Origin: an uncultured Alphaproteobacteria bacterium
GTDB lineage: Bacteria > Pseudomonadota > Alphaproteobacteria > Rhodobacterales > Rhodobacteraceae
Direction: 5' to 3'
Length of the DNA stretch: 64,000 bases
NCBI GenBank assembly: GCA_963822985.1
Contig: CAWGJU010000018.1
Coordinates: 48,394 to 112,393 of the forward strand
Shown here: one piece after another, positions 5,291 to 37,581 of the stretch
Layout of the letters: every line of letters begins with the position of its first letter
Position numbering within the stretch: the stretch's first letter is position 1
Notes under the pieces: generated by a model
Seen by the model: only the letters and a program-made list of their open reading frames with translations
Databases searched by the model: none
What the model was told of the DNA's origin: nothing
Translations under genes and position numbers: made by a program

Positions 5291-5319
5291 TTGCCGCGCG
5301 GGTCAACCACTGGTATAGG
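5291..5319 (+). promoter_or_regulatory. Putative sigma70 promoter for ahcY
   Basis: TTGCCG-N17-TATAGG about 55 nt upstream of the ahcY ATG. Confidence 0.45.
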
Positions 5320-5373
5320 CGCGCGCAAACCGGCGGGATGGCCCGTCAGCATGAGATCAGCCGAGGACCACGC

Positions 5374-6777: not shown

Positions 6778-6779
6778 GC

Positions 6780-6808
6780 GAAGGGGTGGGTGCGAGCACC
6801 CACCCTTC
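6780..6808. terminator. Hairpin (terminator or REP-like) between convergent genes
   Basis: GAAGGGGTGGGTGC-GA-GCACCCACCCTTC inverted repeat directly after the ahcY stop. Confidence 0.6.
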
Positions 6809-6829
6809 GGCCTCTGACCTGAGTGTTGT

Positions 6830-7045
6830 CGGTTCGCCCGTCGGCGGCGCTGGAAGGTTGCGAGCAGGCTGAGGTCGTCGATGTGGTCGTGGCCGGCGCC
6901 GTATTTAGGCGAAGCGCACGGGCGTGATGGCGCCGTCAGCGACCAGGTTGGCGAAGGCCGCGCCGAAGCCGAAGCCGTCGAAGGCCTCGGGTTTGATCGA
7001 AAGCAGGAAGTGCGCGCCCGGCCGCGCCACGCGCACCAGATGCCG
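6830..7045 (-). pseudogene. Frameshifted remnant paralogous to the 3' end of the adjacent methyltransferase gene
   Basis: Translates RHLVRVARPGAHFLLSIKPEAFDGFGFGAAFANLVADGAITPVRFA* and, in another frame, YGAGHDHIDDLSLLATFQRRR. The neighbour reads ELMRVARPRALFVLSIKPEVFDEAGFGSAFASLVAERAITPVDF...YENASHDHAEDTTLLALFRRT. Confidence 0.75.
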
Positions 7046-7077
7046 GCCCCTGTCACCCTCGGTATGTCCGAGCCGGT

Positions 7078-16674: not shown

Positions 16675-17473
16675 TCGACAGGTCCCATGAACTGCCGCTG
16701 ACCGGCCAGGGATTGGGCAGGCGAAGGCGCTCGGGATCAGCCGGGGCGGCGTTTACTACCTGGCGCGGCCGACCTCGGCCGCCGACCTGGTGCTGATGCG
16801 CCGGATCGATGAGCTGCACCTCGAGCATCCGTTCGCGGGCAGCCGGATGCTGCGGGACATGCTGAAGGCGGAAGGCCGCCATGTCGGCAGCCGGCACGTT
16901 GCGACGCTGATGAGAGTCGAGGCGATCTACCGACGGCCGAACACCTCGAAGCCGGCGCCCGGGCACAAGATCTATCCATACCTGCTGCGCAACCTGGCGG
17001 TGACGCGGCCCAACCAGGTCTGGGCGAGCGACATCACCTACGTGCCGATGGCGCGGGGGTTCGTCTACCTCGTCGCCATCGTCGACTGGTTCAGCCGCAA
17101 GGTCCTGGCCTGGCGGCTCTCGATCACGCTGTCGGCGGACTTCTGCGTCGAGGCCCTGGAGGAGGCGCTCGCCCGGCACGGCAATCCCGAGGTCTTCAAC
17201 ACGGACCAGGGCAGTCAATTCACCTCGACCGACTTCACCAAGGTACTGAAGGACGCCGAAATCGCGATCAGTGTCTTCGTCGAGCGGCTCTGGCGGACGG
17301 TCAAATACGAGGAAGTCTATCTGCGTGCTTACGCCGGTGTCACGCAAGCCAGAGCTTCGATCGGCCGGTATCTGAGCTTCAACAACGGCAAGAGGCCGCA
17401 TTCGTCGCTTGGCGGGAAAACTCCCGATCAGGCATACACCAACCTGCCGACGCCAATCCCGGCGGCGGCCTGA
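16671..17473 (+). pseudogene. IS3 transposase OrfB (DDE integrase core), disrupted
   Basis: WASDITY, DWFSRKVLAW, NTDQGSQFT. Small insertion near 16710 shifts the frame. EIAISVFVERLWR lacks the usual MDGKG..RDN segment. Confidence 0.85.
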
Positions 17474-17643: not shown

Positions 17644-18075
17644 ATGAGCGCGCCTCTCCGCAACTCCGCCCTTACGGTCCGCGACAGCTTCGATGCCGCG
17701 AGATCGGAACGCCCTTCCCGCCCGGCACGTCGGACGAAAACACCGCCGCCCTTCTCCCTGCGCCTGAGTGCTGAAGAACGTGCGCAGTTGGAAAGTGCAG
17801 CAGGCGGGATGCCTCTCGGCAGCTTTATCAAGGCGAAGCTCTTTGACGGCGATCTGAGCCCGCGCCGCGCCCGCAGCAAAACCCCGGTCCGAGATCACGC
17901 CGCCCTGGCGCAGCTACTCGGCATGCTCGGCAATATGAGGCTGGCCAACAACCTCAACCAGCTCGCCCGTTCGGCCAATATCGGGACGCTGCCCCTGACG
18001 CCTGAAGTCGAAGAGGAGCTGGCTACCGCCTGCGCGGCGGTGATTGCCATGAAGGCCAAGCCTATGCTGGCGCTC
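17644..18075 (+). pseudogene. mobC: MobC-type mobilisation/relaxosome accessory protein; 3' end fused to unrelated DNA, no relaxase downstream
   Basis: PPFSLRLSAEERAQLE (ribbon-helix-helix-like) and RLANNLNQLARSAN (MobC signature). Confidence 0.75.
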
Positions 18076-18079
18076 GCCT

Positions 18080-18460
18080 TCGGCCACCAGCAGCATGTCG
18101 GGGAGCTCGGGATGGCTGGCGCGGATGCGGGCCGGGCCCTCGGCGCGCAGTACGGGCTTCGGCGCCTTTTCGCACCATGACCAAGTGTTGCGGAACCAGA
18201 GCTGCGGGACCAGCGCGATCTCGGCCGCCTCCGGACCGCGATTGTGCGCCGTGATCCACAGCAGCGTGTCGTTGGGCCCGCCCTTTGCATAAGCGATCTC
18301 GACGTCCCAGTAGCGGTCGTCGTCGAAGATGCCGGTGTCGATCAGCTCGAACTCCGGATCGGTCTTCGAGCGCGCGCGGTTCGTCTCGATCATCTCGGCA
18401 TAGGGGAAGGCCCGCTGCGGGTACTTGTAGACCGTCTGCGACCGGAGCGGGTTCGCCATG
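18080..18460 (-). pseudogene. Internal fragment of a GH63/MGH1-like glucosidase
   Basis: YKYPQRAFPY...EFELIDTGIFDDDRYWDVEIAYAK...ITAHNRGPEAA...PQLWFRNTWSW; truncated at both ends. Confidence 0.75.
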
Positions 18461-18534
18461 CTTTGCACACCTGAATGAGTCGGCCGCCGGCCGATGGCCG
18501 ACGGCGCCTGGGACCGGGCCTTCGATGGGAAGTG

Positions 18535-19434
18535 TCAGACGCCCGCGACCTCGCGCAGGTATCCTCGGGCCTTGCGGGCATAATCCAGCGGGTTGGCCTT
18601 GCGCCGCGTCCTGCTCGGCCTCGACCATCAGCCAGCCTGCGTAGTCGGCGTCGGCGAGCGCCTGGAAGATCGGGCGAAAGTCGATGCAGCCGTCGCCCGG
18701 TACGGTGAAGATGCCCTCGAGCATCGACTCGTAGAAGGTCCGATGGCGGCGGTTGCAGCTTTCCATCACGTCCTGCCGGATGTCCTTGAGATGGACGTGC
18801 TTGATCCGGTCGGCATAGGCGCGGGCCATGTCGAGCGGATCGTCGCCGGCCCAGTAGAGATGGCCGGTGTCGAGCAGCAGGTGCACGGCCTCGGGGTCGG
18901 TGTCGTTCATCAGCCGGTCGACCTCGGCGCGCGTCATGACGCCGGTGCCCATGTGATGGTGATAGCAGAGACGCATGTCGTTCTCGGCGGCCATCCGGCC
19001 CAGCTCGTTCAGCCCCTCGGTCATCGCCCTCCACTGGTCGCGGTCGAAGAGCGGCTTGTTCGAGATCGGCGGGACGGGCGCTGGTGCACGGCGTGGCCGA
19101 GCTCGGCGACGACGACGTCGACGTGCCGCCCATCCGCTTGATGAAGCGCCATCGAGTTGCAGAAGCCCTCGATCGTCCGCTCGCGCATGTCGCGCACGGT
19201 GAAGAAGGTGCTCGACCAGGGCTCGGAGACGCGCAGGCCGCGGCGCGACAGCTCGGCTTGCAGCACCTCCGGGTCCTTGGGGTACTTGTGGCCGACGCTG
19301 CAGCCCTCGAAGCCCGCCAGCGCCATCTCGCTGACGCATTGGCCGAACGAAATGTCGTCGCCGAGGCCCGGAAGTCGTCGTTCGTCCAGCCGGTCGGCGT
19401 GATGCCGACTAGATACCTTCGCGCAGTCGAACAC
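18535..19434 (-). pseudogene. iolE: IolE-like (myo-inosose-2 dehydratase family) TIM-barrel dehydratase, several frameshifts
   Basis: Across frames: GITPTGWTNDD, GDDISFGQCVSEMALAGFEG, CYHHHMGT, LLLDTGH, HVHLKD, FTVPGDG, VEAEQD, KANPLDYARKAR. Confidence 0.85.
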
Positions 19435-19447
19435 TGGGGTGCTCCTT

Positions 19448-19942
19448 TCAAGCCTCGATGCGGGGCGGGGTCGCCCACATGCCGTATCCGAGGGGCTTGG
19501 CGCCGGACGGATTGGCGCCGATGGCGGGCCAGAGCAAGGCCCTCGGTGTAGGAGTCGGGCGAGACGACGAAGTCCCGGTCCCCTTCGCCGGTCCCGTAGG
19601 CCTCGCGCCAGTCGCGCGGCATGCCGTACCAGGTGCCGATGTACCAAAGCTTGATGACGTTGCGCGCGACCGGCCCGAGCCGGTCGTCGCTGAGGATCTC
19701 GCGGCGCAGGCCGCGGTCGATCGCGCCCTCCTCGCCATCCGCCTCGCCGGCGACCCGGCGGTAGGCGGCGAGCAGGTCGGCGATGGTCCTCTCCCCGACG
19801 ATCCGCAGGGCGGTCGAGGTAGAGGCTCGCTCTGGCCGGTGCCGCGCAGGCGGAACTCGGAAAACCCGGTCAGCGCCGCGGACAGGGCGAGAAAGTCGGT
19901 CAAGGCGCTGTCGGACTGCGATGTCGGCTCTCCATCATGCAC
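19448..19942 (-). pseudogene. Small (gamma) subunit of FAD-dependent sugar dehydrogenase (sorbitol dehydrogenase small-subunit family), frameshifted
   Basis: FLALSAALTGF...GPVARNVIKLWYIGTWY...SPDSYTEG(L)LWPAIGANPSGAKPLGYGMWATPP. No twin-arginine leader seen. Confidence 0.75.
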
Positions 19943-21013
19943 GGCATCTCGAAGGTCGGGGCGGCGTGCTCGCCCGCCCAGGCCTCGATCGGCTGGCGCA
20001 TCAGGCGGCAGCACAGCTCCTTGATGTGGAACATGCCGCCGACCGCCTCGATGCAGCAGGTTCGGGCGCGCCGCCGAAGGCGCGCGTCAGCAGGTCGAGG
20101 AACTGCTCGTAGCGTCGCGGTTGAAGGCCTCGGCGCCCGCGGCCGCAGCTCGGAGCCCTCGGGATAGTCGGCGAGCCGCGCGTTCGTCCTGACGGGATAG
20201 ACCGCGTCCCAGTCGACCTCGACCGGCCCGCCGCTGGGCTGCCCGCGCGCGTCGCCTTGCCGGTAGTAGCGGCCGCGCAGCAGCTGCTGAAACCGGTAGT
20301 AGTGCGCGATCTCGTCCTCGTCGATCGAAGATCGCGTCGCTCGACCCCTCGCCCTGCTCCGAGATCAGCTCGATCGCCGGCCTTGGCCGAGGCCAGATCG
20401 GTGACGGGGACGACCTCGCCGCCGCCGGAATAGTAGTAGTCCGGCGTGATCTGCCGGGCGCGGGTCGCCGCAGAAAAGCGCGTCGCCATGCTCGCGCGTG
20501 CAGACGCGTCGAGGCCCTGCTCGATGGCCTTGTAGAATTCGCCGATGCTGTAGAAGTGCTCCTCGGAGTCGTCGTGGACGCGCGCGGCGCGCGAGCGACC
20601 GCCGTCCGCGGCGCGCTCGCGCGTGACGGTCGTCCGCCCTCGCCGGCGGCGCTCGGCCGGGCGCTCGATCTTGAGGAAGCGTCTCGATCGCCGCCTTCGA
20701 GAAGGGCTGGCAGATCGACCTGGAAGTCGGTCTCGCCGTCCGGCAGGATAGGCCGGGTAGCGCGGCACGAAGCCCGGACCGCGTCAGGTCCGGTGCGCCG
20801 CCGACGGCGTTGAGGATGTTCGCCGCCAGCGTCAGGTGCAGCATCTCCTCGACCGCGACCGCCCGGATGACGTGGAAGGCGTCCGAGTTCGTCCCCGGCC
20901 GGATCGAGTACAGCGCCGTCAGATAGGGCGGGATCGTCGCGTGTTCGAGCTGCATCGCCGCGTGCAGGTGCTCGCTGCAGCTCGTCGATGTCGCTGATGT
21001 GGTGCAGGCTCAT
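19940..21013 (-). pseudogene. Ferritin-like (VioB-type) di-iron domain protein, multiple frameshifts
   Basis: MQLEHATIPPYLTALYSI...VAVEEMLHLTLAANILNAVGG; SIGEFYKAI; ISEQGEG; SHYYRF. 3' end approximate. Confidence 0.8.
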
Positions 21014-22925
21014 GCCGTCGCTCCCTCGGCGTCTGCCCGGATCGGGGCCGCGGCCCGTCTGATGTCTTTGGCGATGTGCTCGGCGCTGCGGAAGCAGAGC
21101 GCGGCGAGCGTCAGCGTCGTGTTCGCCGTGCCGACGCTCGGCATGCTGCCGGCGCCGACGAGGTAGAGGTTGTCGTGGTCCCAGGAGCGCTGCCGGTGCG
21201 TCGACGACCGAGTCGTGCGCGCTCGCGCCCATCAGGTGGGTGCCCGGCCCAGTGATTGCCGCCGCGCAGGACGTAGGCCTCGCCCTCGTAGTTGACATAG
21301 CCGTAGGCGGCACGGGTCGTAGGCCGTGTGGTCCTCGGCGCCGAGCCGCTGGAAGATGCGCCGCGAGAGGCGCCGGCGCGAAGGCGGCACGCCTCGAGCG
21401 TGTATTGCGAGACGCCGAAGGAGATGACCGGGCGCGGGTTGCCGAGCTGGTCGGTGAACTGCGGATCGACGCGTGACGCGGTTGCTCTCCTCGGGCAGGA
21501 CCTCGATCATGCAGTCGAGCAGCACCTGGCGCGAGACCCGGTCGACCAGCCCCTCGCGCAGCGCGCGGCCGAAGCGGTTCTCCATGTCGACCAGGCGATC
21601 GAGATCGGTATAGGGTGCCGCCGGTCGCCCAGCCCCAGCCGTCATTGTGGATGCTGAAGCGGAAGGCCGCCTGCGGCGCGCGGAACGGTCCCGTGCGCAG
21701 GTCCTCGATGCCCGAGGTGCAGAGCGGCCCGCGATCGGCGCCGGCCATCTCCGGCATCAGCGCCCAGGTCAGCAGGTAGGCATGGTCCATCAGGTTGCGG
21801 CCGACCAGTCCGCTCGAGCCGTGCAGGTCGAGGCGAGCATCAGGCGGGCGTTCTCGACGGCGTTGGCGGCGAGCACGAAGATCTTCGCCCGCACGCGTGC
21901 CGGTGGTGTGCTCGGGTGAACCTGGCGTCGGCGTAGCTCTGGAACTCGATGCCGGTGACCCGGCCGGTCGACGGGTCGATCAGAACCTGCGAGGCGACGG
22001 TCTGCGGCAGCAGGTGGACGCGCCCGGTCTCGAGCGCGGCGACCAGCGTGCGGCGGGCGTCGTACTTGGCCTGGACCGGGCAGATCGGCACGCAGTTCGT
22101 GTTGCCCTGGCAGCGCTCGCCCATCTCGGCCTGGTGGATGCTGACGGCGCCCACCGGCTTGTAGCCCCTGCCGCCGTCGTAGTCCGGGTTCGGGATGCCG
22201 TTGCGCGCCTGCGGCGTGCTGCGGACGCTGCAGCGCATAGGTGTCGCCGTCGAGCGCCGACCTCGAATGCCGTCCAGGTCCCGCGCGATCAGCCTTGTCG
22301 AGGTAGGAGGGCGGCATGCCGCGCATCGGGAAGACATAGTCCGTCGCCGAAAGTCGAGCCCGCCATAGTCCTGGTCCTCGACATCGCCCGAGACGCCCAG
22401 CTCGCGTTCGGCGCCTGGCGGTAGTACGGGCCGAGCTCGTCATAGCCGAGCGGCCAGTCGCGCCCGCGGCCGAAGCGGCGTGCGCAGCGCGAAGTCGTCC
22501 GGCAGCATGCGCAGCGCCTTGGCCTCCCAGTGCCGGGTCGTGCCGCCGAGCACGCGGGCATAGGTGCTGTCGATCTCGAACGGGCCGTTCTGGACGAAAT
22601 AGCCGGCCGTCGTTCGGCGTGCCCGGGCGGAGCTTCTGCGTCTCGTAGCTCGCGCGGCATGGGCGCGTTCGCGGTTCTCGGCATAGGCGGCGTTGTTGTC
22701 CTTGGAGACGGCCGCGTAGAAGCGCTGCACGCTTTCCTCGTAATCGCCGATCGTGATGTCCTTGCCGGACCCCGCCTCCATGACCAGGACGCGCGCGCCG
22801 CCGGCGCTCAGCTGCTTGGCGATGATCGCGCCGCTGACGCCGGAGCCGACGATGACGACGTCGTAGTCGGTCTCTCCGGCACGCTCGGGACTGACCTCGA
22901 AGGTCGGGTTCGCGCGGGCGCTCAT
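21010..22925 (-). pseudogene. GMC-family FAD dehydrogenase large subunit with Cys-rich Fe-S motif, many frameshifts
   Basis: DVVIVGSGVSG (FAD), VLGGTTRHW, RCQGNTNCVPICPVQAKY, VGRNLMDH, GTHLMG, WDHDNLYLVGAGSMPSVGTANTTLTLAAL. Confidence 0.88.
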
Positions 22926-23136: not shown

Positions 23137-24060
23137 TCAAACCGGATCCGGATCTGCGGACGCCGAGAGCGGCGCGATCACGAAGCGCCAGGACCGGCTC
23201 TGCCCGGGCCCGACATGCGCGATCCCCGGCTTTCCCGACAGCGGACCGGTGAAGTCGACCTGCGCCGGGTAGCCGTGCCATGGCTCGAGCGCGAGGAACG
23301 CCGCACCGGGCTGCATCCAGAGCCCCAGGTTCGGGCTGTCGGGGAAATCGAGGCGGAGCCCTGCGCCGCCCTGGCGGGCGAAGGTGAGGCTGCGGCTCTC
23401 GAGGCAGTCGAAGACGATCGGCTGCGCGCCCTCGAAGAGCTCGTCGCGCGGCCGCAGGAGTCGTCCGTCGACCGGGCTCGGCTGCGGCTCGGGCAGCAGC
23501 ATGACCGGGTCGTCGACGCCGCGGCGGATCGGCTCCGGCTCCTCGGTCGCGAACGTGACGGTGTACGCGTCCTTGGACTGTCCGGGCTCGAGCGGCCAGT
23601 TGAAGCCCGGGTGGATGCCGACATCGCACGGCATCTCCGTCGCGCCGCGGTTCTCGACCGAAAGCGTCAGATGCAGGTCGGCGCCCACCAGCCGATAGTA
23701 CGCCTGGAAGGCGAATGCGAACGGGTAGTAGCGGCGCGTCTCGGCACTGTCCTCGAAGCGCAGCAGCACCTCGTCCGCCTCGTGGCGGTCGACGGCAAAA
23801 GCCGCGCTTCGGGCGAAGCCGTGCGGCGGCATCGGGAACTTGCGCCCCTCAACCTCGATGTGCTGATCAGGCGTCTGCGAGATCAGCGGGAACAGCACCG
23901 GCGCGTGATCCGGCCAGCGGCCGGGTGCGCCCTGCCAGATCAGCTCCGGCATGCCGGCCGGCCGGAACGAGACGAGCTCTGCCCCGGTCACCCGGACGAG
24001 CGCGCTCGCCTGTTCCGTCTCCAGCGTGACGACGTCATCGACCTGTCGCGCCCCGTCCAT
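23137..24060 (-). CDS. Aldose 1-epimerase family protein
   Basis: GAELVSF, WPDHAPVLFP, MPPHGFAR, YYPFAF, GIHPGF, FLALEPWHG; TGATG overlap with GH15. Confidence 0.88.
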   Translation of the reverse strand: MDGARQVDDVVTLETEQASALVRVTGAELVSFRPAGMPELIWQGAPGRWPDHAPVLFPLISQTPDQHIEVEGRKFPMPPHGFARSAAFAVDRHEADEVLLRFEDSAETRRYYPFAFAFQAYYRLVGADLHLTLSVENRGATEMPCDVGIHPGFNWPLEPGQSKDAYTVTFATEEPEPIRRGVDDPVMLLPEPQPSPVDGRLLRPRDELFEGAQPIVFDCLESRSLTFARQGGAGLRLDFPDSPNLGLWMQPGAAFLALEPWHGYPAQVDFTGPLSGKPGIAHVGPGQSRSWRFVIAPLSASADPDPV

Positions 24061-25880
24061 CAGAGACCGCCCGCCAGTTCGGCCGCCCGGTCGAGCGCCG
24101 CATCGAGCGAGCGCGCGGCGCCGACCAGGCCGAGATGCGTGAAGGCCTGCGGGTAGTTGCCGAGATGCTCGCCGGTCGGGCCGAGCTCCTCGGCGTAGAG
24201 GCCGAGCGTGCCGGCATAATGCAGCATCTTCTCGAAGATCAGCCGCGCCTCCTCGACCCGCCCGGCGCGGGCCAGGCAGTCGACATACCAGAAGGTGCAC
24301 ATGCTGAAGGTGCCTTCCGAGCCGGCCAGCCCGTCGGACGCCGCCTGGTCCGTCCGGTACCGGTAGACGAGGGAGTCGTCGACGAGCTCGCGCCCGACCG
24401 CGTCGAGCGTCGACAGCCATCTCGGATCGCGCGGCGCGATGAAGCCGGCGATCGGCATCAGCAGGCACGACGCGTCCAGGATCTTGCTGCCGCGGTACTG
24501 GACAAAGATCTTCCGCTCGGCGTCCCAGAAACGATGGTAGATCTCGTCGTGGATCGCGTCGCGCGTCGCGCGCCAGCGCTCGAGCGGGGCCGGCAGCGAG
24601 CGCCGCTCGGCGATACGCACCGCGCGATCGAGGCCGACCCAGTCCATGAGCCGCGAGTAGAGGAACCGGCGCTGCCCGCCGCGGACCTCCCAAACGCCCT
24701 CGTCCTCGCGGTCCCAGTTCTCGCAGACCCACCCGACCGTCTTCTGGATGTGCGTCCACAGGTCGTTGTAGATCGGCTCGACCTTGGCATCGTAGCGCTC
24801 GAGGAACAGCAGCAGCTCGCCATAAATATCGAGCTGGAGCTGCGAATAGGCGCCATTGCCGATCCTGACCGGCCGCGAGCCCTTGTAGCCGTCCAGGTGC
24901 TCGAGCGTCTGCTCGGTCAGCTTGCTCCGGCCGTCGATGCCGTACATGATCTGCAGTTGGCCGTCGCCCGACTTGCGGTACCGGTCGAGGATCCAGTTGA
25001 CGAAGCTGCGCGCCTCGTCGTGACAGCCGACGTCGACCAGGGTCGCCGCCGTCAGCGAGGCGTCCCGGATCCAGGTGAAGCGGTAGTCCCAGTTGCGCTC
25101 GCCGCCCACGCTCTCCGGCAGGCCGAAGGTCGCCGCCGCGGCCAGCGAGCCGCATGGCGCCGAGGTCATCAGCTTCATGCCGAGCACCGAGCGATTGACC
25201 GCCTGCGTCCACCGTCCGTCGTAATTGCAGCCGGCCATCCAGTCGCGCCAGAAGCGCAGCGTCCGCGTGAACGCCTGCTCGGCATAGCCCGGGCCCTCGA
25301 CGACGCTGGTGTGGTCCTCCTGCGCGACCTCGAGCACGAAATCGGCCTCCTCGCCGGCTTCCAGGGTGAAGTGCGCGCGCACGTCGCGATGCGCGGCGAC
25401 GACGGGCACCGGCGCGTGCAGCCGCAGCGGGCGGTTGTGCGCGTGCCGCGGCCGGAACAGCGCCTGGTTGCCGTCAATCTCCAGGCTGTGCTCGCCGCGC
25501 GCATAGTCGAACCGCGGCGCGCACAGCATTTCGAACGAGACCCGGCCGCGGATGGTCTTGACCCGCCGCACCAGCCTGTGGGCGTGCTGCTCCTCGGGCG
25601 TCGGCATGAAGTCGACGATCTCGGCGACGCCGTCCTTGCCGAGGAACCGCGTCATCAGGATGTTGGTGTCGGGAATATAGAACCGCCGGGTCCACTGGTT
25701 CTCCATGATCGCCGAGATCCGGAAACGGCCCCCTTCCTCGTCGTCGAGCAGCGCCGCGAAGACCGTCGGCGAATCGAAATGCGGCATGCACATGAAGTCA
25801 ATGCTGGCATCTTCGGAGACGAGCGCCAGCGTGTGCATGTCTCCGATCAGTCCATAACTCTCGATTGGCTGATATGCCAT
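24060..25880 (-). CDS. Glycoside hydrolase family 15 (trehalase/glucoamylase-like)
   Basis: YGLIGDMHT, PHFDSPTVF, NWDYRFTWIRDAS, QLDIYGE, GVWEVRG, LGLYAEE, GNYPQAFTHLGL. Confidence 0.92.
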   Translation of the reverse strand: MAYQPIESYGLIGDMHTLALVSEDASIDFMCMPHFDSPTVFAALLDDEEGGRFRISAIMENQWTRRFYIPDTNILMTRFLGKDGVAEIVDFMPTPEEQHAHRLVRRVKTIRGRVSFEMLCAPRFDYARGEHSLEIDGNQALFRPRHAHNRPLRLHAPVPVVAAHRDVRAHFTLEAGEEADFVLEVAQEDHTSVVEGPGYAEQAFTRTLRFWRDWMAGCNYDGRWTQAVNRSVLGMKLMTSAPCGSLAAAATFGLPESVGGERNWDYRFTWIRDASLTAATLVDVGCHDEARSFVNWILDRYRKSGDGQLQIMYGIDGRSKLTEQTLEHLDGYKGSRPVRIGNGAYSQLQLDIYGELLLFLERYDAKVEPIYNDLWTHIQKTVGWVCENWDREDEGVWEVRGGQRRFLYSRLMDWVGLDRAVRIAERRSLPAPLERWRATRDAIHDEIYHRFWDAERKIFVQYRGSKILDASCLLMPIAGFIAPRDPRWLSTLDAVGRELVDDSLVYRYRTDQAASDGLAGSEGTFSMCTFWYVDCLARAGRVEEARLIFEKMLHYAGTLGLYAEELGPTGEHLGNYPQAFTHLGLVGAARSLDAALDRAAELAGGL

Positions 25881-26533
25881 CTGCCCTCCTCGGCGGTCGA
25901 CTGGCGGCCGCCGATGCTATCCAGAAATCTATTGTGCGCCGTGTGGTAGACGGCATAACCTAAAGGCTTCATTACCCAGGCGGCGGTGCCGATCAGCGGA
26001 TGGTGCAGTTCGGCGACCACGGCGACGAAGATCGCAGCGAGCGGAAAGCTGATGGCGTGATAGGCGGCGCGGCGACGCAGGAACCGCGCCTCGTATGTCG
26101 CGTGCAGCTCGGAATGCTGCGACAGATACCAGGCGTTCAGCGCCATCAGCATGCCGTTGAGCAGCATGATCACCGAGAAGATGGCCGCCGAAAGCAAATC
26201 CTCAGGATAGTCGCCGACCAGATTGGCGCCGAGCGGAATCAGGGTGACGCCGCCGAGCTGCAGCATGTTAATGACGATGAAGCCGCTGTCGGTTCTGCCG
26301 CTGTGCGCGAACAGGTAATGCTGGTCGTACCAGACAAGCCCGATGACGACGAAGCTGATCATCCACGCCGTCAGCTCGGGGGCCTGGTTCCTCAGCTGCG
26401 CCCAGAGCACGGCATCGTTCGCGGCGTCACCGGGAACCTTGAGATCCAGCACGAGAAGCGTGATCGCGATCGCGACGACGCCATCCGAAAGCGCTCCGAT
26501 GCGTTCGATCCCGAAGGAGCGGATGCTCGCCAT
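25847..26533 (-). CDS. TMEM175-family potassium channel
   Basis: ERIGALSDGVVAIAITLLVLDL (RxxxFSD-like), YDQHYLF; about 6 hydrophobic segments. Confidence 0.85.
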   Translation of the reverse strand: MASIRSFGIERIGALSDGVVAIAITLLVLDLKVPGDAANDAVLWAQLRNQAPELTAWMISFVVIGLVWYDQHYLFAHSGRTDSGFIVINMLQLGGVTLIPLGANLVGDYPEDLLSAAIFSVIMLLNGMLMALNAWYLSQHSELHATYEARFLRRRAAYHAISFPLAAIFVAVVAELHHPLIGTAAWVMKPLGYAVYHTAHNRFLDSIGGRQSTAEEGRWHISQSRVMD

Positions 26534-26736
26534 TCAGGGCTTTTCCTTCCGGCCCGCTCTTGCGTGCGTTCGACCCGATCCAGGCGCCCGGCCGCTGTGC
26601 GAGGCCAAGGTCGGCACCCGGTTGATGAGCGTGCAACCCTCATCCCTATCGCATCCTCGGCCGCAGGACTTGCCGAAGGGTTAAATGGCCGGAGCGTCGT
26701 CCGGCATGACGGCCGGGCCGGTCGTTGGCCTTCCGG

Positions 26737-27198
26737 TCAACCGGCGCATCTGGCGACGAGGGCTGCCTCTGCGAGCAGGCCGGCCCGCATCATCATCATA
26801 GCAATCAGCCCCTGGCAGGTCGGCGAGCGGTCGAAGGAGGGCATCGCGGAGAGGGCGAAGAGCCGGAAACGGTAATGATGAACGCCAGACCCCGGCGGCG
26901 GGCATGGCGGAAACAGCCCCACGGCGCCGAAATCGTGCAGGACCGGCCGAGCCGGGTCGGCCAGGTCGCCGGTTCCCTCCGGCAGTTCGCGCGTCTCTGC
27001 CGGGATGGCATAGGCGCCGAAGTGCCTGAATGCCCCGCCCGGCGCATCGGGGTCTTCCAGAATCAGGGCGAATCCCACCGTCCCATCCGGCACGCCAGAC
27101 CATGCGAGCGGCGGCAGAAGGCCGGCACCCCGGCAGGTGTACTTGTCGGGAAGCTCGGAGTTCGCGGCGAAGGCCGGCGAGGCCAGCGTCAGCGGCAT
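26737..27198 (-). CDS. YbhB/YbcL (PEBP/Raf kinase inhibitor-like) protein
   Basis: MPLTLASPAF...YTCRG...PPLAWSGVP...ILEDPDAPGG...PCPPPGSGVHHYRFRLFAL; AAGGAG RBS. Confidence 0.85.
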   Translation of the reverse strand: MPLTLASPAFAANSELPDKYTCRGAGLLPPLAWSGVPDGTVGFALILEDPDAPGGAFRHFGAYAIPAETRELPEGTGDLADPARPVLHDFGAVGLFPPCPPPGSGVHHYRFRLFALSAMPSFDRSPTCQGLIAMMMMRAGLLAEAALVARCAG

Positions 27199-27369
27199 GG
27201 ATATCTCCTTGGAAATCGAAACTGCCATCCGTTTCGCCGCGGCATCGGGTCGGCTGGTCGCGGCAGATTTCTGTTCGCGCGGTCACTGGACGGTCATGGC
27301 GGCCGTCGGCGGCAAAGTCTCCTCTATTTAATTCGAGGTGATGAATGGTTGAGACTTCACAAAGGCCAA

Positions 27370-27385
27370 TCAGAATCAATTCTGA
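27370..27385. promoter_or_regulatory. Palindromic operator candidate in the AT-rich divergent promoter
   Basis: TCAGAAT-CA-ATTCTGA perfect 7-bp inverted repeat. Confidence 0.4.
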
Positions 27386-27496
27386 ACCGTGAATGCATAT
27401 AGCCGGAAGGAAATTTTAAGGATTGGGCGGTGAGGTGCCGATCGGTTCAATTTGCTGCAACGTGCAGCCATTCCAGTCGGCGGCGAGGAACTCCGA

Positions 27497-28717
27497 ATGA
27501 AGGTTAAATTCGCGCAACCCAGGTTCGAGCAGGCTCTGGTCGAGGGCGGCCTCAAGGACGGCTACTGGCTCGACAGCGTCGACCTGAACGGCGACGGGCG
27601 GCCGGATCTCGTGGCCTCCGGCCTGGCTGTCGGCGAGATCGTCTGGTACGAGAATCCCGGCTGGAAGAAGCACGTTATCGGCCAGCTCTCGAAGCCGGTG
27701 GCGATGGATCACATCGACATCGACGGGGACGGGCGCCAGGATCTCGTTATCTGCCACGACTATGGCGAGTGCATGTATCACTGCCAGCCCGAGGACGGTA
27801 AGATCTCGTGGCTGCGCAATCCCGGCAACGGCGCCCACGGCCCTTGGGAGCAGCGCTTCGTCGCCGACCTGATGGCGACGCACCGGTTGCGCTTCGGCTA
27901 TTTCACCCAGCGCGAGAAGCCCGAGCTGATGGGGCTCCCGGTGGTTGGGCCCGAAGGCGGCATGGCCGGCGTCCACGAACCGGTGCAGGTCATGCTCTAC
28001 CGCCGCCCCGACGACGTGGCGAGCGCCGAGAAATGGGAAGGCGAGCTGATCGACGGCCAGAACTTCCGGATCATCCACGACGTCGTGGTCGGCAAATGGG
28101 GCGGCCCGGACGCCCTCAACTCGGTCATGCTGGCGACCGAGGAAGGCGTCTGCTGGTTCCGCTACGAGAACGGTACCTGGAAGACATCCGTGCTCGGCAC
28201 TGGCGAGCTGACCGAGTACACGAAGACGCATTTCAAGGGCACCGGCAATCTCGCCTTCGGCAAGGTCGATGGCGATCCCCATGCCTATATCGCGACCGTC
28301 GAGCCCTTTCACGGCAACGTGGTGGCAGTCTACACAAAGGAAGGTGGCGGCCGCCTTGACGACGCGCGCTGGCGCCGCACGGTGCTCGATGTTTACGGCG
28401 ACCCGAACGCCTCCGATGAGGGTCCCGGCCATCACGTGATGGCGGCGGATTTCGACGGCGACGGCGACGACGAGTTTCTCGTCGCGCTGCGCGGACCGTG
28501 GCCCTGGCAGGGTGTCTTCTATTACAAGTGTATCGACGTCGAGAACGCTGTCTTCACCAAGACCCGCATCTCTTCGGCATCGGCGGCGCGTATCGCCCTC
28601 GGGGACTTCGACGGGGACGGCCGCATCGACTTTGCGACCACGGGTTACTACACGCCAGGATACTTCCTCTGCGATGATCCAAGCGTATTGGTTTTCTATA
28701 ATAGGATCGAGCATTGA
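27497..28717 (+). CDS. FG-GAP beta-propeller protein homologous to the dehydratase domain of aldos-2-ulose dehydratase (AUDH)
   Basis: DGYW, PVAMDHIDIDGDG, ISWLRNPG, ATHRLRFGYFT, IIHDVV, EPFHGNVVAVYTK, GHHVMAADFDGDGDDEFLVA, FTKTRISSASAARIA, DFATTGYYTPGYF. These match, in order, motifs I recall from fungal AUDH. No signal peptide. Confidence 0.75.
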   Translation: MKVKFAQPRFEQALVEGGLKDGYWLDSVDLNGDGRPDLVASGLAVGEIVWYENPGWKKHVIGQLSKPVAMDHIDIDGDGRQDLVICHDYGECMYHCQPEDGKISWLRNPGNGAHGPWEQRFVADLMATHRLRFGYFTQREKPELMGLPVVGPEGGMAGVHEPVQVMLYRRPDDVASAEKWEGELIDGQNFRIIHDVVVGKWGGPDALNSVMLATEEGVCWFRYENGTWKTSVLGTGELTEYTKTHFKGTGNLAFGKVDGDPHAYIATVEPFHGNVVAVYTKEGGGRLDDARWRRTVLDVYGDPNASDEGPGHHVMAADFDGDGDDEFLVALRGPWPWQGVFYYKCIDVENAVFTKTRISSASAARIALGDFDGDGRIDFATTGYYTPGYFLCDDPSVLVFYNRIEH

Positions 28718-29028
28718 AGTATCAGGACGCCTCGGAACCCCGCAGCGGCGTCGCCGTGGCGGTGAGGATGTCGAGGTTGCGTTAGCGTGGTTCCGTCGAC
28801 TCGGACGAGTTGCTGCGCTGGGCTTTCAGAGGCAGACGATGCGCTCGAGCGGCTTTTGCGGGCGGTCGGGACGACGTGCTCCCCTTTTCAGCCGTTGGCC
28901 GCCCTCCCGGTGAGAACGGCGGTGCAAAAGTCGGCCCCGGTAGCGGCGGGATGATCCCGCGGCGGGCGGCGTAAAAGTCGGCCAGGTTTGCCCTCTCTGA
29001 CGGCAGGGAGGGCGGGGGCATTTTCAGC

Positions 29029-30561
29029 GTGGAGTTGTATCGGAAGGTGCGCCGTGCCTATTTCAGGCAGGGCATGAGCAAGCGGGGGATCGCGCGCCAC
29101 TTCGGGATCTCGCGCGACAGCGTGGACAAGATGATCGTCTACTCGGTGCCGCCGGGCTACCGGCGGACGGCGCCGGTGAAGCGGCCGAAGCTCGACGGGT
29201 TCACCGAGATCATCGACCGCTGGCTGTGCGAGGATGCGGACCGCCCCCGCAAGCAGCGGCACACGGCAAAGCGGGTTCTCGACCGCCTCCGTGACGAGCA
29301 CGGGTTCACCGGCGGCTACACGATCGTGAAGGCGTATGTGCGCGAGCATCAGCGGCGCGGCCGGGAGATGTTCGTGCCGCTGCACCATGCGCCCGGGCAC
29401 GCGCAGGCGGACTTCGGCGAAGCGCTGGTGGTGATCGGCGGGGGTCGAGCAGATGGCGCACTTCTTCGCCTTCGACCTGCCGCACAGCGACGCCTGTTAT
29501 ATCCGGGCCTACCCGGCGGCGACGGCCGAGGCGTGGGCCGACGGCCACGTGCACGCCTTCGCCTTCTTCGGGCGGGTGCCGCTGTCGGTGCTCTATGACA
29601 GTGAGGAGGATCAGAAATCGATCCAGTGGATCGATTTCCCGACGAACCGCTGCCTGGTGGCGCGCATCCTGCCGGACGGGACGCGCCAAGCGGGCCCGCG
29701 CTCTTCCAGCGGATTGCTGTCGCACTACGTCATCGAGGATCGCTCCGGCCGGCCGGGCAAGGGCAACGACAAGGGCAGCGTCGAAGGCTCGTCGGCTGGT
29801 CGCGGCGGAACTTCATGGTGCCGCTGCCGCGGTTTGCGACCTGGAACGACTTCAACGCCTGGCTCGAGGAGCAGTGTCGCAAACAACTCGCCGATGTCCT
29901 GCGCGGCCACAGCGAGACGATCGGCGAGCGGCTCCAGCGCGATCTCAAGGCGATGGCTCCGCTGCCGCCGGCGTCATTCGAGGCCTGCGACCAGGCGACG
30001 GGCCGGGTGAGCTCGCAGGCGCTGGTGCGCTACAAGACCAACGACTACTCGGTGCCGGTCGCCTACGGCCACCGCGACGTCCGGGTGCGGGGCTATGTCG
30101 ACCAGGTGGTCATCGGCTGCGGCGGCGAGATCATCGCCCGCCATCCACGCTGCTACGGCCGCGAGGACATGGTCTTCGATCCGATCCACTACCTGCCGCT
30201 GCTGGAGAAAAAGATCGGCGCCTTCGACCAGGCTGCACCGCTGGTGGGCTGGGAACTGCCCGCCGAGTTCCAGACGCTGCGCCGGCTGCGGCTGCTGGAG
30301 ACGTTCGAGCTCGGCGAGCTGCATTTGGCGGTGAAGACCGCGCTGAGGATGGGCGCCGTCGGCTTCGACGCCATCAAGCACCGTTCGCCATGGCGCTCGG
30401 ACCGGTGGCACGCCATGGCTCACCCGTGCCAGGTCGAGAGGCGGCCGCCGAAGCTCGACCTCGACGTCTACCCCTACCTGCCGCGCGCCAACGTCGGGAC
30501 CACCTCGGCGGCGAGCTACATGTGCCTGATCGCCGGGAGCTCGGCCGGTGGCTCGGCATGA
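29029..30561 (+). pseudogene. istA: IS21 transposase IstA, frameshifted, with insertions and a deletion
   Basis: MELYRKVRRAY, HGFTGGYTIVK, HAQADFGEA, LYD, GNDKG, YKTNDYSVP; extra G near 29445 and further indels. Confidence 0.88.
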
Positions 30562-30845
30562 GCGACGCGCCGAAGCTGCTGCTCGACCACCACCTCAAGA
30601 CGCTGAAGCTGCCAACCTTCCTTCGGGAATACGGCAAGCTCGCCCGCCCGGCGGCATACGCCGCCAGGATCGTGATCTGCGCGCATCCGCGCGCGGGGCG
30701 CCGCCGAGGGGCAGGACCATGTGCAGTTCCTGGCCCGGCTGGTGGAGCTCGAGCTGATCGACCGCGAGCGCCGGATGATCGAGCGCCGGATCAAGGCGGC
30801 AAAGTTCCCGGTGACCAAGAGCCTCGACAGCTTCGACTTCAAGGC
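30558..30845 (+). pseudogene. istB: IS21 ATPase IstB, 5' fragment
   Basis: LLDHHLKTLKLPTFLREY...ELIDRERRMIERRIKAAKFPVTKSLDSFDF; breaks off before Walker A. Confidence 0.85.
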
Positions 30846-31029
30846 GAGGCGAACCGTGCCTGCCGCGAAGGTGCGCCGCTTAAGAGTATCCCCGAGCCGG
30901 GCGGGGGCGTCGCTGACGAGGAAGGAGATGGCTGCGCAGCAACCCAACCCCTACGGAACACTGATCGGCTCACGGCGCCCGCGAACCAGATCCTCCAGCA
31001 GATCGAGGCGATCCTGGCCCCAGAACAGC

Positions 31030-31577
31030 TCACCACGATAGGTCCAGCTGGGCGCCCCGAACACCTGCGCCTTCACCGCCGCCTCGGTCTCGGCCTTCGC
31101 CTGGGCATGAATCTCCGGCCCCTCCGCCTTTGCGAGGAGCGCATCTCCGTCCGCGCCAAGATCCTCGGCGACGGCCTTCAGCGTCGCCGGATCGGCAACG
31201 TCTCGATCCTCGACCCAGCAGGCGCGCATGAAGGCACCTGCGAGTGAGCCAACGTCCAGGTTCATCTGCGAGGCGGCGAGGAGGACGCGTGCACTGAGTG
31301 CGGCATTTGTCGGGAAGTGCTTGGGGTGGAGCGTCAGCGGCAGCCCCAGTCGGTCGCGCCAGCGCTGCAGCTCGAACAGCCGGTAACGCTGGCGCTGCGG
31401 CGCCCGCTTCGGCAGCGGCAGACCACCAGAGCCTGCGAACACCACCCCGAAATCGACCGGGTGGAAGCGAACCGCGAGACCGGTATCGGCGGCCAGCCTC
31501 ATGAAGCGGTCGTGCCCCAGATAGGACCACGGGGACGGGACGGTGAAATAGTAGTCGATCGTCTTGTCGCTCGTCAT
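31030..31577 (-). CDS. 2-hydroxychromene-2-carboxylate isomerase / DsbA family (GST kappa-like)
   Basis: IDYYFTVPSPWSYLG, KRAPQRQRYR, VFGAPSW, LFWGQDRLD. Confidence 0.9.
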
Positions 31578-31858
31578 GAAGGCCTCCCCTACTGAACTGG
31601 CCCACGGCTGCGCCAGCTTACGCGCTGACGATGGCCCGTCGCACCTTCCTACCTGATGTCCCCGAAGTTCGCCTTCTCCCGATGTGATGCTGACGCGCCG
31701 AGCCTCCGAATCGGCGCACGACCGTGGCGCCCGAACCGCGGCCGAGAATGGCGGCGCAGACCTGCCCGGGTTTCGCACGCTTTCGAACGTCGCCGCAGTG
31801 CTGCTCCGGGACGTCGCTTCTGCTGGTCGCCCGCTTTTGCATCGACCATCGTTCGCCC

Positions 31859-31951
31859 ATGCAGATCCCGAACCCGATCCACCCCGACCACCTCTCGCCG
31901 AAGGAGCGGCTGGCCGAAGTCTGCCAACTCCTCGCCCTCGGGCTCGTCCGG
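31859..31951 (+). pseudogene. 5' fragment of the small gene usually found upstream of DUF2924-recombinase modules
   Basis: MQIPNPIHPDHLSPKERLAEVCQLLALGLVR; joins the recombinase remnant in the opposite orientation. Confidence 0.5.
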
Positions 31952-32692
31952 TATGCCGTGCCCTTGTGCACGGCCTCGCCGATGTAGACCCGGTTTGACA
32001 GCAGCCGATAGAGGACTCCCTTGTGGATGACGCTGCCGCGGTTGCTGCGCACGCCCTCCCGCCGGAGCTCTCGGGCCAGCACCGTGGCTGAGCCGGTGGC
32101 GATGAAGCGCTCGAAGATCGAGCGGACGACCGCCGCCTCCGCCTCGTTCACGACCAGCTTCCGGTCGCGGACCTCGTAGCCCCAGGGCACGTTGCCGCCC
32201 ATCCACATGCCCTTGCGGCGGCTCGCAGCGATCTTGTCGCGGATGCGCTCGGCCGTCACCTCCCGCTCGAATTGGGCGAAGGAGAGCAGGATGTTCAGCA
32301 TCAGCCGGCCCATGGACGTCGTGGTGTTGAACGACTGCGTGACGCTGACGAAGGTCACCTCGTGCCGATCGAAGATCTCGACGAGCTTGGCGAAGTCGGC
32401 GAGCGAGCGCGACAGCCGGTCGATCTTGTAGCAGACGATGACGTCGACGAGGCCCTCCTCGAATATCGGCGAGCAGCCGCTTCAGTCCGGGCCGCTCCAG
32501 CGTGGCACCGGAGATCCCGCCGTCGTCGTAGGCGTCGCGCACCAGCACCCAGCCCTCCGGCTTCTGGCTGGCGATGTAGGCCTCGCAGGCCTCGCGCTGG
32601 GCGTGCAGCGAGTTGAACTCCTGCTCCAGCCCTTCCTCGCTGCTCTTCCGGGTGTAGACGGCGCAGCGGAGCTTCCGGACCACCTTCGTCAT
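31952..32692 (-). pseudogene. Large serine recombinase, frameshifted and 3'-truncated
   Basis: RCAVYTRKSS (catalytic Ser), YDDGGISG, YKIDRLSRS, SFAQFERE, GMWMGG, NRVYIG; extra base near 32461. Confidence 0.88.
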
Positions 32693-33050
32693 GCGCGCCG
32701 CCGATGGTTGGCCAAGCCGAAGAAGAGGGGCCCGTTCCAGCGCGTGCCGGTGATGGCGCGGGCGATGGCGGACAGCGAGCGGTAGGGCCGGCCCTGCCAC
32801 TCGAAGCCGTCGGCGAGTACGGTCACGACATACTCAGTGCCCTGCCACTCGCGGACGAGCCGGGTGCCGACGATAGGCTTGGTGTTTTGCCGCGCCCGCC
32901 GCTTCACGACGTCGCCGCCGTCTAGCTCCTCGCCCATCTGTTCCAGCCGGCGCAGGGTCTCCGGCTTCAGCCCGCCATAGGCGAGCTCCTGGATCCTGTA
33001 TGCGAGCCGGCTCTCGAGGAACGGCCGGTTGTAAGGCGGCGGCTCTGCGC
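32689..33050 (-). pseudogene. DUF2924 domain protein, 5' end replaced by an IS fragment
   Basis: PPPYNRPFLESRLAYRIQELAYGGL...GTRLVREWQG...YRSLSAIARAITGTRWNGPLFFGL. Confidence 0.85.
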
Positions 33051-33497
33051 CGCCACCAGCCCGGCCGATTGCAGCGCCAGCCGGGTCACCGTGTAGGACA
33101 GTTTGTAGCCGTGCCGCTGCACCAGCTGCTCATGGAAAAGCTTCACCGTGAAATCGCGGTAGCGTTCCTGGTAGAGCATCTGCATCCGCGTCAGCTCGGC
33201 CGCCGGCGCCCGCCGCGGCGACGGCTTGCCGAGCCGCCGGTCGCGCAGACCCTCGGCGCCCTCCGCGTCATGGCGCACCAACAGCCGCCGGAAATGCCGG
33301 CCCGACATGCCGAGCAGCTCGCCCGCATCCTCGGCCGTCAGCCGCCGCTTGCGGTAGCGCTCCATCGCTTCTTCGAACCTGAGCACGAAGACCTCCCATA
33401 ACGCGCTTGTCCGCCGCATCGCCCCCTCCCGAACAGGACGCGAACCTGGCGGACAACTCACGCGCTACGAAAGCGGACAACTCACCCATCTCCGACA
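33050..33497 (-). mobile_element. Left-end fragment of an ISNCY/IS481-like element (transposase start at 33419, truncated)
   Basis: End reads TGTCGG on the minus strand with repeated GCGGACAACTCAC (33449, 33473). ORF: LRFEEAMERYRKRRLTAEDAGELLGMSGRHFRRL...GLRDRRLGK. Confidence 0.7.
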
Positions 33498-33704
33498 CGC
33501 GCTCCAGTTATCCTTGCACGCACTGATAACACATAGTAGAATTTCTAGTTGAGTCGGCATGTTCCGCTTCGGGGCCAAAATACTGTCGGCTAAGTGGGGC
33601 GCAGGCAAAAGCCTGTCTGCAGTCTGAATGTATGACTGACACTTTGTCCATCGGGGGCGAGGCGGCTCTTCAAGATTTTGCGCTCGCTCCGTAAGGAGGA
33701 GGCT

Positions 33705-36374: not shown

Positions 36375-36658
36375 GCGGTGCGGTAGAGGCGCTAGGGCGG
36401 GGCTTTGCGATCGCCTTTAACTGCACGGTTTGGCGCGGAAGAACAAACGGCAAGTTTGTCCGCACCTACGCCGTCCGGCGGCGTGTCTGCACGACCGCTT
36501 CTGCGCCATAGAACGAACCCGCTACCGCGGGAGGGCGCGCACTTGGAGGTTTGCGCGATGATCCCGGCGTCGGGGGCGGCGTGATCGGCATGACGGCGGG
36601 GGCGTGAGGTCCCGAGCATCGGAGGTCTTGCAACCTCCGGCTCGAAAGGACCACGCCG

Positions 36659-37568
36659 ATGACCACCGAGACGCCGTCCGGCTCCGTTAGCCCGCTGCGC
36701 GCCCGCATGATCGAGGACATGCGCGTGCGCGCCTTCCAGAAAGAGACGCAGCGGCAGTATCTGCGCCACGTCGCCACCTTCTCCGCGTTCCTCGGGCGCC
36801 CGCCGGACACGGCGACGGTCGAGGATGTGCGCCGCTTCCAGATACACCAGGTGGAGAGCGGCTGCGCCAAGCCGAGCATGAACGCATCGGTCACCGCGCT
36901 CCGCTTCTTCTTCACGGTGACGGTCGATCGACCCGACCTCCCCCGGCGCCTGGCACGGGCACGCTACCCGCGCAAGCTGCCCGAGAATTCTCAGCCCTGA
37001 GGAGGTGGCGCGCCTGCTCGAGGCCGCGCCGAGCCTGAAGCTGAAAGCCGCGATGAGCACGGCCTACGCCGCCGGCCTGCGGGTGGCGGAGGTCGTCTCG
37101 CTCAGGATCGCCGACATCGACAGCGCGCGCATGACGCTGCGGATCGAGCGGGGCAAGGGCGGCCGCGACCGCTACGCCATGCTCTCGCCGCAGCTGCTCG
37201 TCCTGCTGCGGATCTGGTGGCGCGAGGGCCGGCGACGTGGCCAGATGCTGCCGAACGGCTGGCTCTTCCCGGGCCGTTCGCCCATCCAGCCGCTGTCGAC
37301 CCGGCAGTTCAGTCGCGGGGTGGCGATGGCGGCGGAGACCGCCGGCATCACGAAGCGGGTGACGCCGCACACACTGCGCCACTCCTTCGCGACGCATCTC
37401 CTCGAACAGCGGACCGACATCCGAGTGATCCAGGTCCTCCTCGGTCATGCGAAGCTCGAGAGCACGGCACTCTATGCGCAAGTGGCGACGAAGACGCTGC
37501 GCTCGGTCGCGAGCCCGCTCGACAGCCTGATCCTGCCTGGATCGGAGCGACCGAGACCGGAGGCCTGA
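36659..37568 (+). pseudogene. Phage-integrase family tyrosine recombinase, +1 frameshift near 36986
   Basis: LRARMIEDM...YAAGLRVAEV...GKGGRDR...HTLRHSFATH...LLGHAKLESTALY. CCCGAGAATTCTCAGC has one extra A relative to PEILSPEE. Confidence 0.88.
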
Positions 37569-37581
37569 CGCGCCGGCCCGT

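Follow-up and report, generated by a model that had tools for sequence, protein, structure and literature searches.

Does aldos-2-ulose dehydratase (AUDH), an enzyme of fungi, have working counterparts in bacteria and, if so, in what metabolic setting would they act? The question is raised by an open reading frame (ORF) at 27497..28717 (+) in a 64,000-nucleotide stretch of DNA from an uncultured Alphaproteobacteria bacterium of the Rhodobacteraceae (contig CAWGJU010000018.1, positions 48,394 to 112,393; this whole stretch is hereafter called the window). So far AUDH has been a fungal curiosity, known because it turns glucosone and 1,5-anhydrofructose into the antimicrobials cortalcerone and microthecin. 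A first-pass annotation, made from the sequence alone, had read the 406-aa product of this ORF as a stand-alone homolog of the AUDH beta-propeller and not as a generic FG-GAP repeat protein. The homology was borne out by our analysis, and we give a probability of roughly 55% to the reading that the product is a keto-sugar dehydratase, cytoplasmic and dependent on a divalent metal, which corresponds, as a single bacterial domain, to the first (propeller) active site of AUDH.

The Pfam family PF22301 (AUDH_beta_propeller) matched the 406-aa protein with 171.5 bits (E 2e-50), against a cut-off of 27, and FG-GAP and FG-GAP_3 repeats with DxDGDG loops were also detected by Pfam; no NCBIfam model matched. 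In a sequence search of the whole PDB (HMMER/phmmer, E<=10), AUDH (4a7k) was the sole match, with an E value of 1.6e-67 and an alignment of query residues 6-401 to chain residues 18-431. The nine motifs that the first-pass annotation had listed for the fungal enzyme were all present and aligned in order: DGYW, PVAM, SWLxNPG, HRLxxGxFT, H(D/E)V, FHGNxVxVYTK, HxVxxADxDGDGxDEFLVA, FxKTxxSSxSAxRIA, and DxATxxYxxPGYF. An AlphaFold2 model built with 25 homologues was confident and all-beta, with a pLDDT of 89.4 and a pTM of 0.90. Its top Foldseek matches were the AUDH structures 4a7k, 4a7y, and 4a7z (TMq 0.89-0.91, root mean square deviation [rmsd] 2.3-2.6 A, 33-34% identity), with values for 4a7k alone of TMq 0.91, 2.3 A, and 34% identity. 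The next fold was CRTAC1 at TMq 0.67, and lectins and integrins reached 0.45-0.59. The similarity to AUDH is specific and full-length, far beyond chance and beyond generic FG-GAP resemblance.

The protein stops at the end of the AUDH propeller, equivalent to chain residue 431 of 900. As had been claimed, the cupin domain (PF18637, the bicupin of the isomerase site) and the C-terminal lectin domain are absent from the 406-aa product according to both Pfam and the PDB alignment. The claim that a signal peptide is missing also held, as no hydrophobic segment was found when the N-terminus (MKVKFAQPRFEQALVEGG) was inspected for one.

Residue conservation was examined by rebuilding AUDH residues 18-431 from the printed alignment and aligning them with 39 bacterial sequences: that of the window protein and those of 38 homologues, chosen to represent three genomic contexts. 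A column was called conserved when no more than one of the bacterial sequences departed from it. There were 64 such columns, and 57 of them (57/64) are identical in AUDH. The conserved set contains exactly four histidines, H129/H155, H194/H215, H272/H295, and H312/H337 (window/AUDH numbering), each with at most one exception among the 39 sequences and each shared with AUDH; these are precisely the four histidines that the first-pass annotation had singled out. Also in the set are R130/R156, Y89/Y116, Y279/Y302, R294/R319, Y384/Y414, and Y389/Y419. The window protein keeps every family-invariant column, both in this alignment and in alignment A1. Alignment and structure prediction thus both spoke against a generic FG-GAP similarity lacking the conserved histidines. 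Six positions (S41, H87, D100, S104, R191, and H313) are fixed in the subfamily of the window protein and differ in AUDH and in the other subfamilies.

The gene itself is intact. Its 406 codons (1,221 bp) are uninterrupted by any frameshift or stop, as first annotated, and the composition is typical of a coding frame (GC content at third codon positions 0.83, in a window of 64-73% GC). An alternative TTG start at 27452 would give a longer version; the ATG at 27497 was preferred because a Shine-Dalgarno-like GAGGA, read from the sequence at 27485..27489 (+), lies 7 nt before it and because an independent gene call gave the same 406-aa product. An independent short-read contig (ERR11594398) reproduced window positions 25080-28936 at 99.95% identity without gaps, and with them the whole ORF. 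This contig ends about 90 bp short of an IS21-like ORF, as would be expected at the edge of a repeat. Against four orthologues, the ratio of nonsynonymous to synonymous substitution rates (dN/dS) was 0.09-0.15, and the AUDH-like gene is under purifying selection.

A word-indexed protein search (E<=1e-5) matched 1,581 bacterial clusters, of proteins about 410 aa long. Among the best 120 of these 1,581, 118 are 400-449 aa long and carry PF22301, many phyla are represented, and identity to the window protein is 53-89%. The nearest genome match to the gene was a Geminicoccaceae metagenome-assembled genome (87% identity), and named bacterial members include Thioalkalivibrio nitratireducens, Aureibacter tunicatorum, Persicobacter diffluens, and Flavivirga aquatica. 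Some homologues are already labelled 'Aldos-2-ulose dehydratase beta-propeller domain-containing' by UniRef or JGI, while others are labelled 'VCBS repeat-containing'. The window protein is an ordinary member of this large, already labelled bacterial family, and both Pfam and UniRef already register the homology to AUDH, which makes it less novel than the first-pass annotation implied. In a paper on the VCBS superfamily, AUDH figures only among the peripheral families (PMC8023676). The new elements are a conserved gene cluster, loci with a split AUDH, and local pseudogenisation. The cluster and the broken partner genes in the window had been overlooked in the first-pass annotation.

Because only insertion sequence (IS) debris lies downstream of the AUDH-like gene, the context survey was widened to 87 related loci (given L numbers where they need to be told apart), in which ORFs were called and clustered; three context types emerged. 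Type A comprises the closest relatives of the window gene, at 50% identity or more. Of the loci surveyed, 51 have flanks of 6 kb or more in both directions, and linkage was counted in these: an IolE-like TIM barrel was present in 35/51, a GMC dehydrogenase in 35/51, and both in 33/51. This GMC/IolE-like linkage spans Alpha- and Gammaproteobacteria, Bacteroidota, Myxococcota, Chloroflexota, Actinomycetota, Planctomycetota, and Cyanobacteria. The GMC flavoprotein is about 530-760 aa long, and its closest solved relatives (E ~1e-70) are 6a2u, the alpha subunit of an FAD-glucose dehydrogenase (FAD-GDH), and 7w2j, the large subunit of a fructose dehydrogenase (FDH). In Thioalkalivibrio nitratireducens (L007, 6540-9982) and 36 other loci, the GMC gene is followed by genes for a ferritin-like PF12902 protein, an intact orthologue of which matches PDB 3hl1, and for a protein of about 160 aa. 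The latter has a conserved motif, LWYxGTWYxLP, and no Pfam or NCBIfam match; a twin-arginine motif, sought in this small protein with a periplasmic complex in mind, was not found. A Cys-rich Fe-S motif, reportedly present in FAD-GDH, was seen in 0/53 GMC proteins. Together, the GMC, ferritin-like, and ~160-aa proteins may form a cytoplasmic dehydrogenase or oxidase of sugars, made of three subunits and so far undescribed. In four Flammeovirga loci (L048-L050 and L052), a tandem GMC pair flanks the small subunit, ahead of the ferritin-like and AUDH-like genes, which represents a duplication of the dehydrogenase.

The type A TIM barrel matches IolE (PDB 3cny, E 3.6e-77; TIGR04379, 346 bits, cut-off 290) and, weakly, the 2-hydroxy-3-keto-glucal hydratase 8ro4 (E 8e-7). 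Type A loci often also encode an archaeal-type glycogen-debranching-like enzyme (GDE, TIGR01561) and an MGH1/GH63-like hydrolase of about 900 aa (PF22422 in an intact orthologue), with a GH15 trehalase-like enzyme, a mutarotase, and a PEBP protein as alternative neighbours. The combination of a GMC enzyme, a TIM barrel, and a small protein had suggested a cluster for C-glycoside deglycosylation of the CarA/CarB/CarC type; this was rejected, as the TIM barrel is IolE-like (E 3.6e-77) and not CarB/DgpC-like, the GMC protein is FAD-GDH/FDH-like, and the small protein is encoded after the ferritin-like and GMC proteins, as the small subunit of a dehydrogenase would be. Two further proteins, a bestrophin-like channel (PF14023) and one that is SnoaL-like, turn up repeatedly where type A clusters end (L011, L017, L021, L028, L032, L033, L066, L068, L069, and L071; also L006, L008, and L015).

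The propellers of type B loci (Bacteroidota, Cyanobacteria, Paenibacillus, Electrothrix, and others) have 47-52% identity to the window protein. After the propeller gene comes one for a 240-250-aa protein that is conserved, and seven of the loci (L054 at 2164-7300, L060, L064, L065, L070, L075, and L078) also encode a GH31 enzyme of about 1,010 aa. The 240-250-aa family has 458 members, and all of the named ones are called 'hypothetical protein' or 'uncharacterized'. Weak matches to PF18637 (AUDH_Cupin) were obtained for 7 of 15 members, with no other consistent family. A predicted model of this protein (pLDDT 93) had the cupin region of AUDH (4a7z) as its best match (E 7e-9, TMq 0.61), with all other bicupins at TMq 0.31 or below. 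This match came from structure comparison alone, for AUDH was not among the PDB entries retrieved with a sequence profile of the neighbour family (248 aa). As a propeller and an AUDH-like bicupin are encoded side by side, type B loci are predicted to encode a split AUDH. In the window, no homologue of the separate bicupin was found by tblastn over the 64 kb. The first-pass annotation had concluded that the window protein would be a dehydratase only, with no isomerase activity; this fits its domain content, and the prediction is strengthened by other subfamilies, in which the bicupin that it lacks is encoded separately, next to the propeller.

The type B GH31 protein scored similarly against maltase-glucoamylase (211 bits) and the alpha-1,4-glucan lyase 2x2h (185 bits). 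It is possibly an alpha-1,4-glucan lyase, which would make the locus a candidate bacterial anhydrofructose pathway. Type C loci (L073, L076, L079-L084, L086, and L087), from Streptomyces, Nocardiopsis, and Xenorhabdus, add to the propeller/bicupin pair a nucleotidyltransferase, short-chain dehydrogenases, a UDP-GlcNAc 2-epimerase-like enzyme, an acyltransferase_3 protein, and an MFS transporter. This cluster looks biosynthetic and may make a sugar-derived secondary metabolite.

How might the propeller work in such settings? The metal, the substrate, the regiochemistry, and the direction of the reaction are what we infer, with the chemistry modelled on AUDH. A metal held by conserved histidines would polarise the sugar carbonyl, a conserved histidine would take the alpha-proton, and the beta-hydroxyl would depart, so that an ascopyrone-M-type 4-deoxy enol-one is formed. 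In type A, the neighbouring alpha-glucan or alpha-glucoside hydrolases and the mutarotase would supply the sugar, via free glucose; their presence suggests an alpha-glucan or alpha-glucoside carbon source. The adjacent GMC dehydrogenase would then oxidise the released sugar to the keto-sugar used by the propeller, and the propeller product would pass to the IolE-like dehydratase, which would stand in place of the fungal cupin. Since IolE-like enzymes dehydrate ring ketones, we suggest that two successive eliminations would replace the fungal dehydration and isomerisation. In the fungal pathway, reportedly described by Koths in 1992 (a paper cited in PMC11650716), AUDH is coupled to pyranose 2-oxidase, which is likewise a GMC enzyme, and the bacterial GMC linkage mirrors that pair. 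More tentatively, and at somewhat less than even odds, we propose that these genes mark a cytoplasmic route, as yet undescribed, for sugars that come from alpha-glucan or glucose. In type A, the GMC protein, the ferritin-like (possibly di-iron) protein, and the small subunit would make a keto-sugar that the propeller and the IolE-like enzyme dehydrate in turn; in type B, the GH31 enzyme, a possible alpha-1,4-glucan lyase, would deliver 1,5-anhydrofructose to the split AUDH, in what would be the first bacterial pathway of the anhydrofructose/ascopyrone type.

In the window, the partners of the AUDH-like gene are largely decayed. Divergent from it is an intact PEBP/YbhB-family gene at 26737..27228 (-) (PF01161, E 1.6e-27), and the same divergent pair occurs in L001-L004 and L010. 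Next come an intact TMEM175-type potassium channel gene at 25847..26533 (-) (PF06736, E 4.6e-24), also present on the independent contig (L088) and probably outside the pathway, and an intact gene for a GH15 glucoamylase/trehalase-like glycoside hydrolase at 24060..25880 (-) (PF00723, E 2e-74, with TREH_N). The GH15 protein is 69-70% identical to the AUDH neighbour in L009, which matches the archaeal trehalase TreH1 below cut-off; the GH15 family occurs in 14 loci. An aldose 1-epimerase (mutarotase)-like gene at 23140..24036 (-) (PF01263, E 1.8e-17) is apparently intact, and its product has 53% identity over 284 aa to that of an L015 gene lying between the IolE-like and AUDH-like genes.

The type A partners proper also lie within 9 kb of the AUDH-like gene. 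As located by tblastn with intact orthologues, the GMC flavoprotein dehydrogenase is a pseudogene at 21013..22925 (-) with ~12 frame changes, its N-terminal fragment still matching FAD-binding families. The ferritin-like (PF12902) gene at 19945..20970 (-) has ~9 frame changes, the gene for the ~160-aa small subunit at 19454..19930 (-) has 2, and that for the IolE-like xylose-isomerase-fold TIM barrel of the inosose-dehydratase family at 18538..19497 (-) has 3, giving ~26 in total. An MGH1/GH63-like hydrolase fragment at 17962..18483 (-) covers only ~aa 116-292 of roughly 900, and a GDE gene is absent from the window (tblastn). The in-frame segments of the damaged genes have dN/dS values of 0.24-0.44. 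We read the frame changes as real decay because the long ORFs elsewhere in the window are intact and the adjacent 3.9 kb matches an independent assembly; an assembly error is an unlikely cause of the frameshifts in 18.5-22.9 kb.

Mobile elements lie on both sides of the region. An IS3-family transposase (rve) gene at 16790..17473 (+) (PF00665, E 3.9e-24) borders the decayed operon, and remnants of an IS21/Mu-type transposase in two frames at 29029..30561 (+) (PF22483, E 1.4e-25, on 29626-30561) lie just downstream of the AUDH-like gene. From 29029 to 38817 the DNA is dense with such remnants; besides the IS21/Mu-type pieces and a helix-turn-helix protein, there are resolvase/recombinase fragments (31618-32800), a phage-integrase fragment (37005-37568), and an IS91-type Y2 transposase (37582-38817). 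An 898-aa ORF amid these remnants (33678-36374, +) had as its sole match a weak, sub-threshold one to BNR_2 (E 7e-7).

Several points weigh against the keto-sugar dehydratase reading. With the partner genes frameshifted and truncated, the proposed pathway cannot run from the window locus, and the propeller would either work with genes elsewhere in the genome or be an orphan survivor. The six subfamily-specific positions, candidates for the pocket, differ from AUDH, and the substrate may therefore differ too. The closest solved relatives of the GMC protein oxidise glucose at C1 or fructose at C5, not C2. The four histidines are candidate metal ligands and base on the strength of their conservation and of a 2012 study by Claesson and co-workers, which reportedly placed the zinc of the AUDH dehydration site in the propeller and gave His155 a part in proton abstraction. 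Finally, our literature search found no study testing a bacterial member of the AUDH-propeller family.

The main rival holds that the propeller acts on 3-keto and not 2-keto sugars: the GMC protein would be a glucoside/glucose 3-dehydrogenase, the TIM barrel a 3-keto-glycoside beta-eliminase, and the propeller would hydrate or further dehydrate the resulting 2-hydroxy-3-keto-glycal. Known glucoside 3-dehydrogenases share the three-subunit GMC group with the FAD-GDH and FDH matches, and the neighbouring glycoside hydrolase and mutarotase suit glycoside catabolism. Known oxidation-elimination-hydration pathways pair a sugar dehydrogenase with an AP_endonuc_2 TIM-barrel lyase (PMC10628242; bioRxiv 10.1101/2024.03.25.586180), and the cluster TIM barrel does weakly match the hydratase 8ro4 (E 8e-7). 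However, it is far nearer to IolE (3cny, E 3.6e-77; TIGR04379 above cut-off) than to the 3-keto-glycoside lyases or hydratases, the sole characterised relative of the propeller uses 2-keto sugars, and chemistry of the 1,5-anhydrofructose type is indicated by the split-AUDH loci, in which a bicupin and GH31 are combined. We consider the 3-keto alternative unlikely. Far less credible is a non-catalytic FG-GAP/VCBS propeller serving as a calcium-binding scaffold or a carbohydrate binder of the integrin or PVL type. The FG-GAP and FG-GAP_3 repeats with their DxDGDG loops would suit such a role, and the VCBS supercluster holds many binding proteins (PMC8023676). Yet the AUDH match is specific (E 1.6e-67), with no lectin or integrin in the PDB sequence search and much weaker structural matches to both (TMq 0.45-0.59); an invariant His/Arg/Tyr set is common to the propeller and an enzyme, AUDH; and the tight gene linkage is to metabolic enzymes. 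Moreover, the 406-aa protein has neither signal peptide nor extra domains, whereas the VCBS core is described as signal-bearing (PMC8023676).

Another explanation concerns the window genome only: the gene could be a leftover of pathway decay with no present role, kept intact by the short time elapsed or by an unrelated co-option. Four partner genes with ~26 frame changes, a truncated fifth, the IS3, IS21, resolvase, integrase, and IS91 remnants around the region, and dN/dS values in the partner segments (0.24-0.44) above that of the AUDH-like gene are all as this explanation would have it. The AUDH-like gene, however, has zero frameshifts or stops in 1,221 bp against ~26 in the neighbouring 4.4 kb, has a dN/dS of 0.09-0.15, and keeps all family-conserved columns, and the GH15, mutarotase, and PEBP genes are likewise intact; an intact second copy of the operon could also lie beyond the 64-kb window. 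A leftover gene seems somewhat less probable even than a 3-keto-sugar enzyme, and a keto-sugar dehydratase of the AUDH kind remains our preferred reading.

To our knowledge, reduction is the sole bacterial fate described for 1,5-anhydrofructose. The family includes more than 1,500 clusters of single-domain proteins in many phyla, with either a sugar dehydrogenase plus another dehydratase or a separate bicupin plus GH31 as linked genes, and this breadth and tight linkage suggest that keto-sugar dehydration is widespread and unexplored in bacteria. The family also offers simple, soluble, single-domain enzymes for tests of the AUDH mechanism and for the production of deoxy-enone sugars. The value of the window gene itself is lower, as it is an ordinary member whose partners have decayed.

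Among known systems, the closest is AUDH of Phanerochaete chrysosporium (4a7k/4a7y/4a7z), which shares with the window protein a seven-bladed FG-GAP-type propeller over its whole length (34% identity, TM 0.91, PF22301), the four histidines and most family-invariant residues, and a link to a sugar-oxidising GMC flavoenzyme. Unlike AUDH, the window protein is bacterial, predicted to be cytoplasmic, and 406 instead of 900 aa long, without a bicupin (isomerase) or lectin domain. Its relatives are partnered by a dehydrogenase-type GMC protein with a ferritin-like protein and a small subunit and not by pyranose 2-oxidase, and an IolE-like TIM barrel stands where the fungal cupin would act. With the other bacterial AUDH-propeller proteins it has family, length, and domain content in common; most of these keep an intact GMC/ferritin-like/small-subunit/IolE-like/GDE/GH63-like cluster, whereas that of the window is frameshifted and truncated. 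The 3-keto-glycoside hydratases and lyases (DUF1080 BT2/AL2, AtHYD 8ro4, and OGE/CGE) also handle keto-sugar enones and likewise belong to small catabolic clusters in which they act downstream of a dehydrogenase of sugars, but they have jelly-roll or TIM-barrel folds, and their hydration step is carried out by DUF1080 or AtHYD-type proteins; we know of no propeller reported in these pathways. IolE, the myo-inosose-2 dehydratase, performs the same type of chemistry as that proposed here, a metal-assisted beta-elimination of water beside a ring ketone, on an unrelated TIM-barrel fold, and its close paralogue, as the commonest neighbour of the propeller, is a partner and not a relative.

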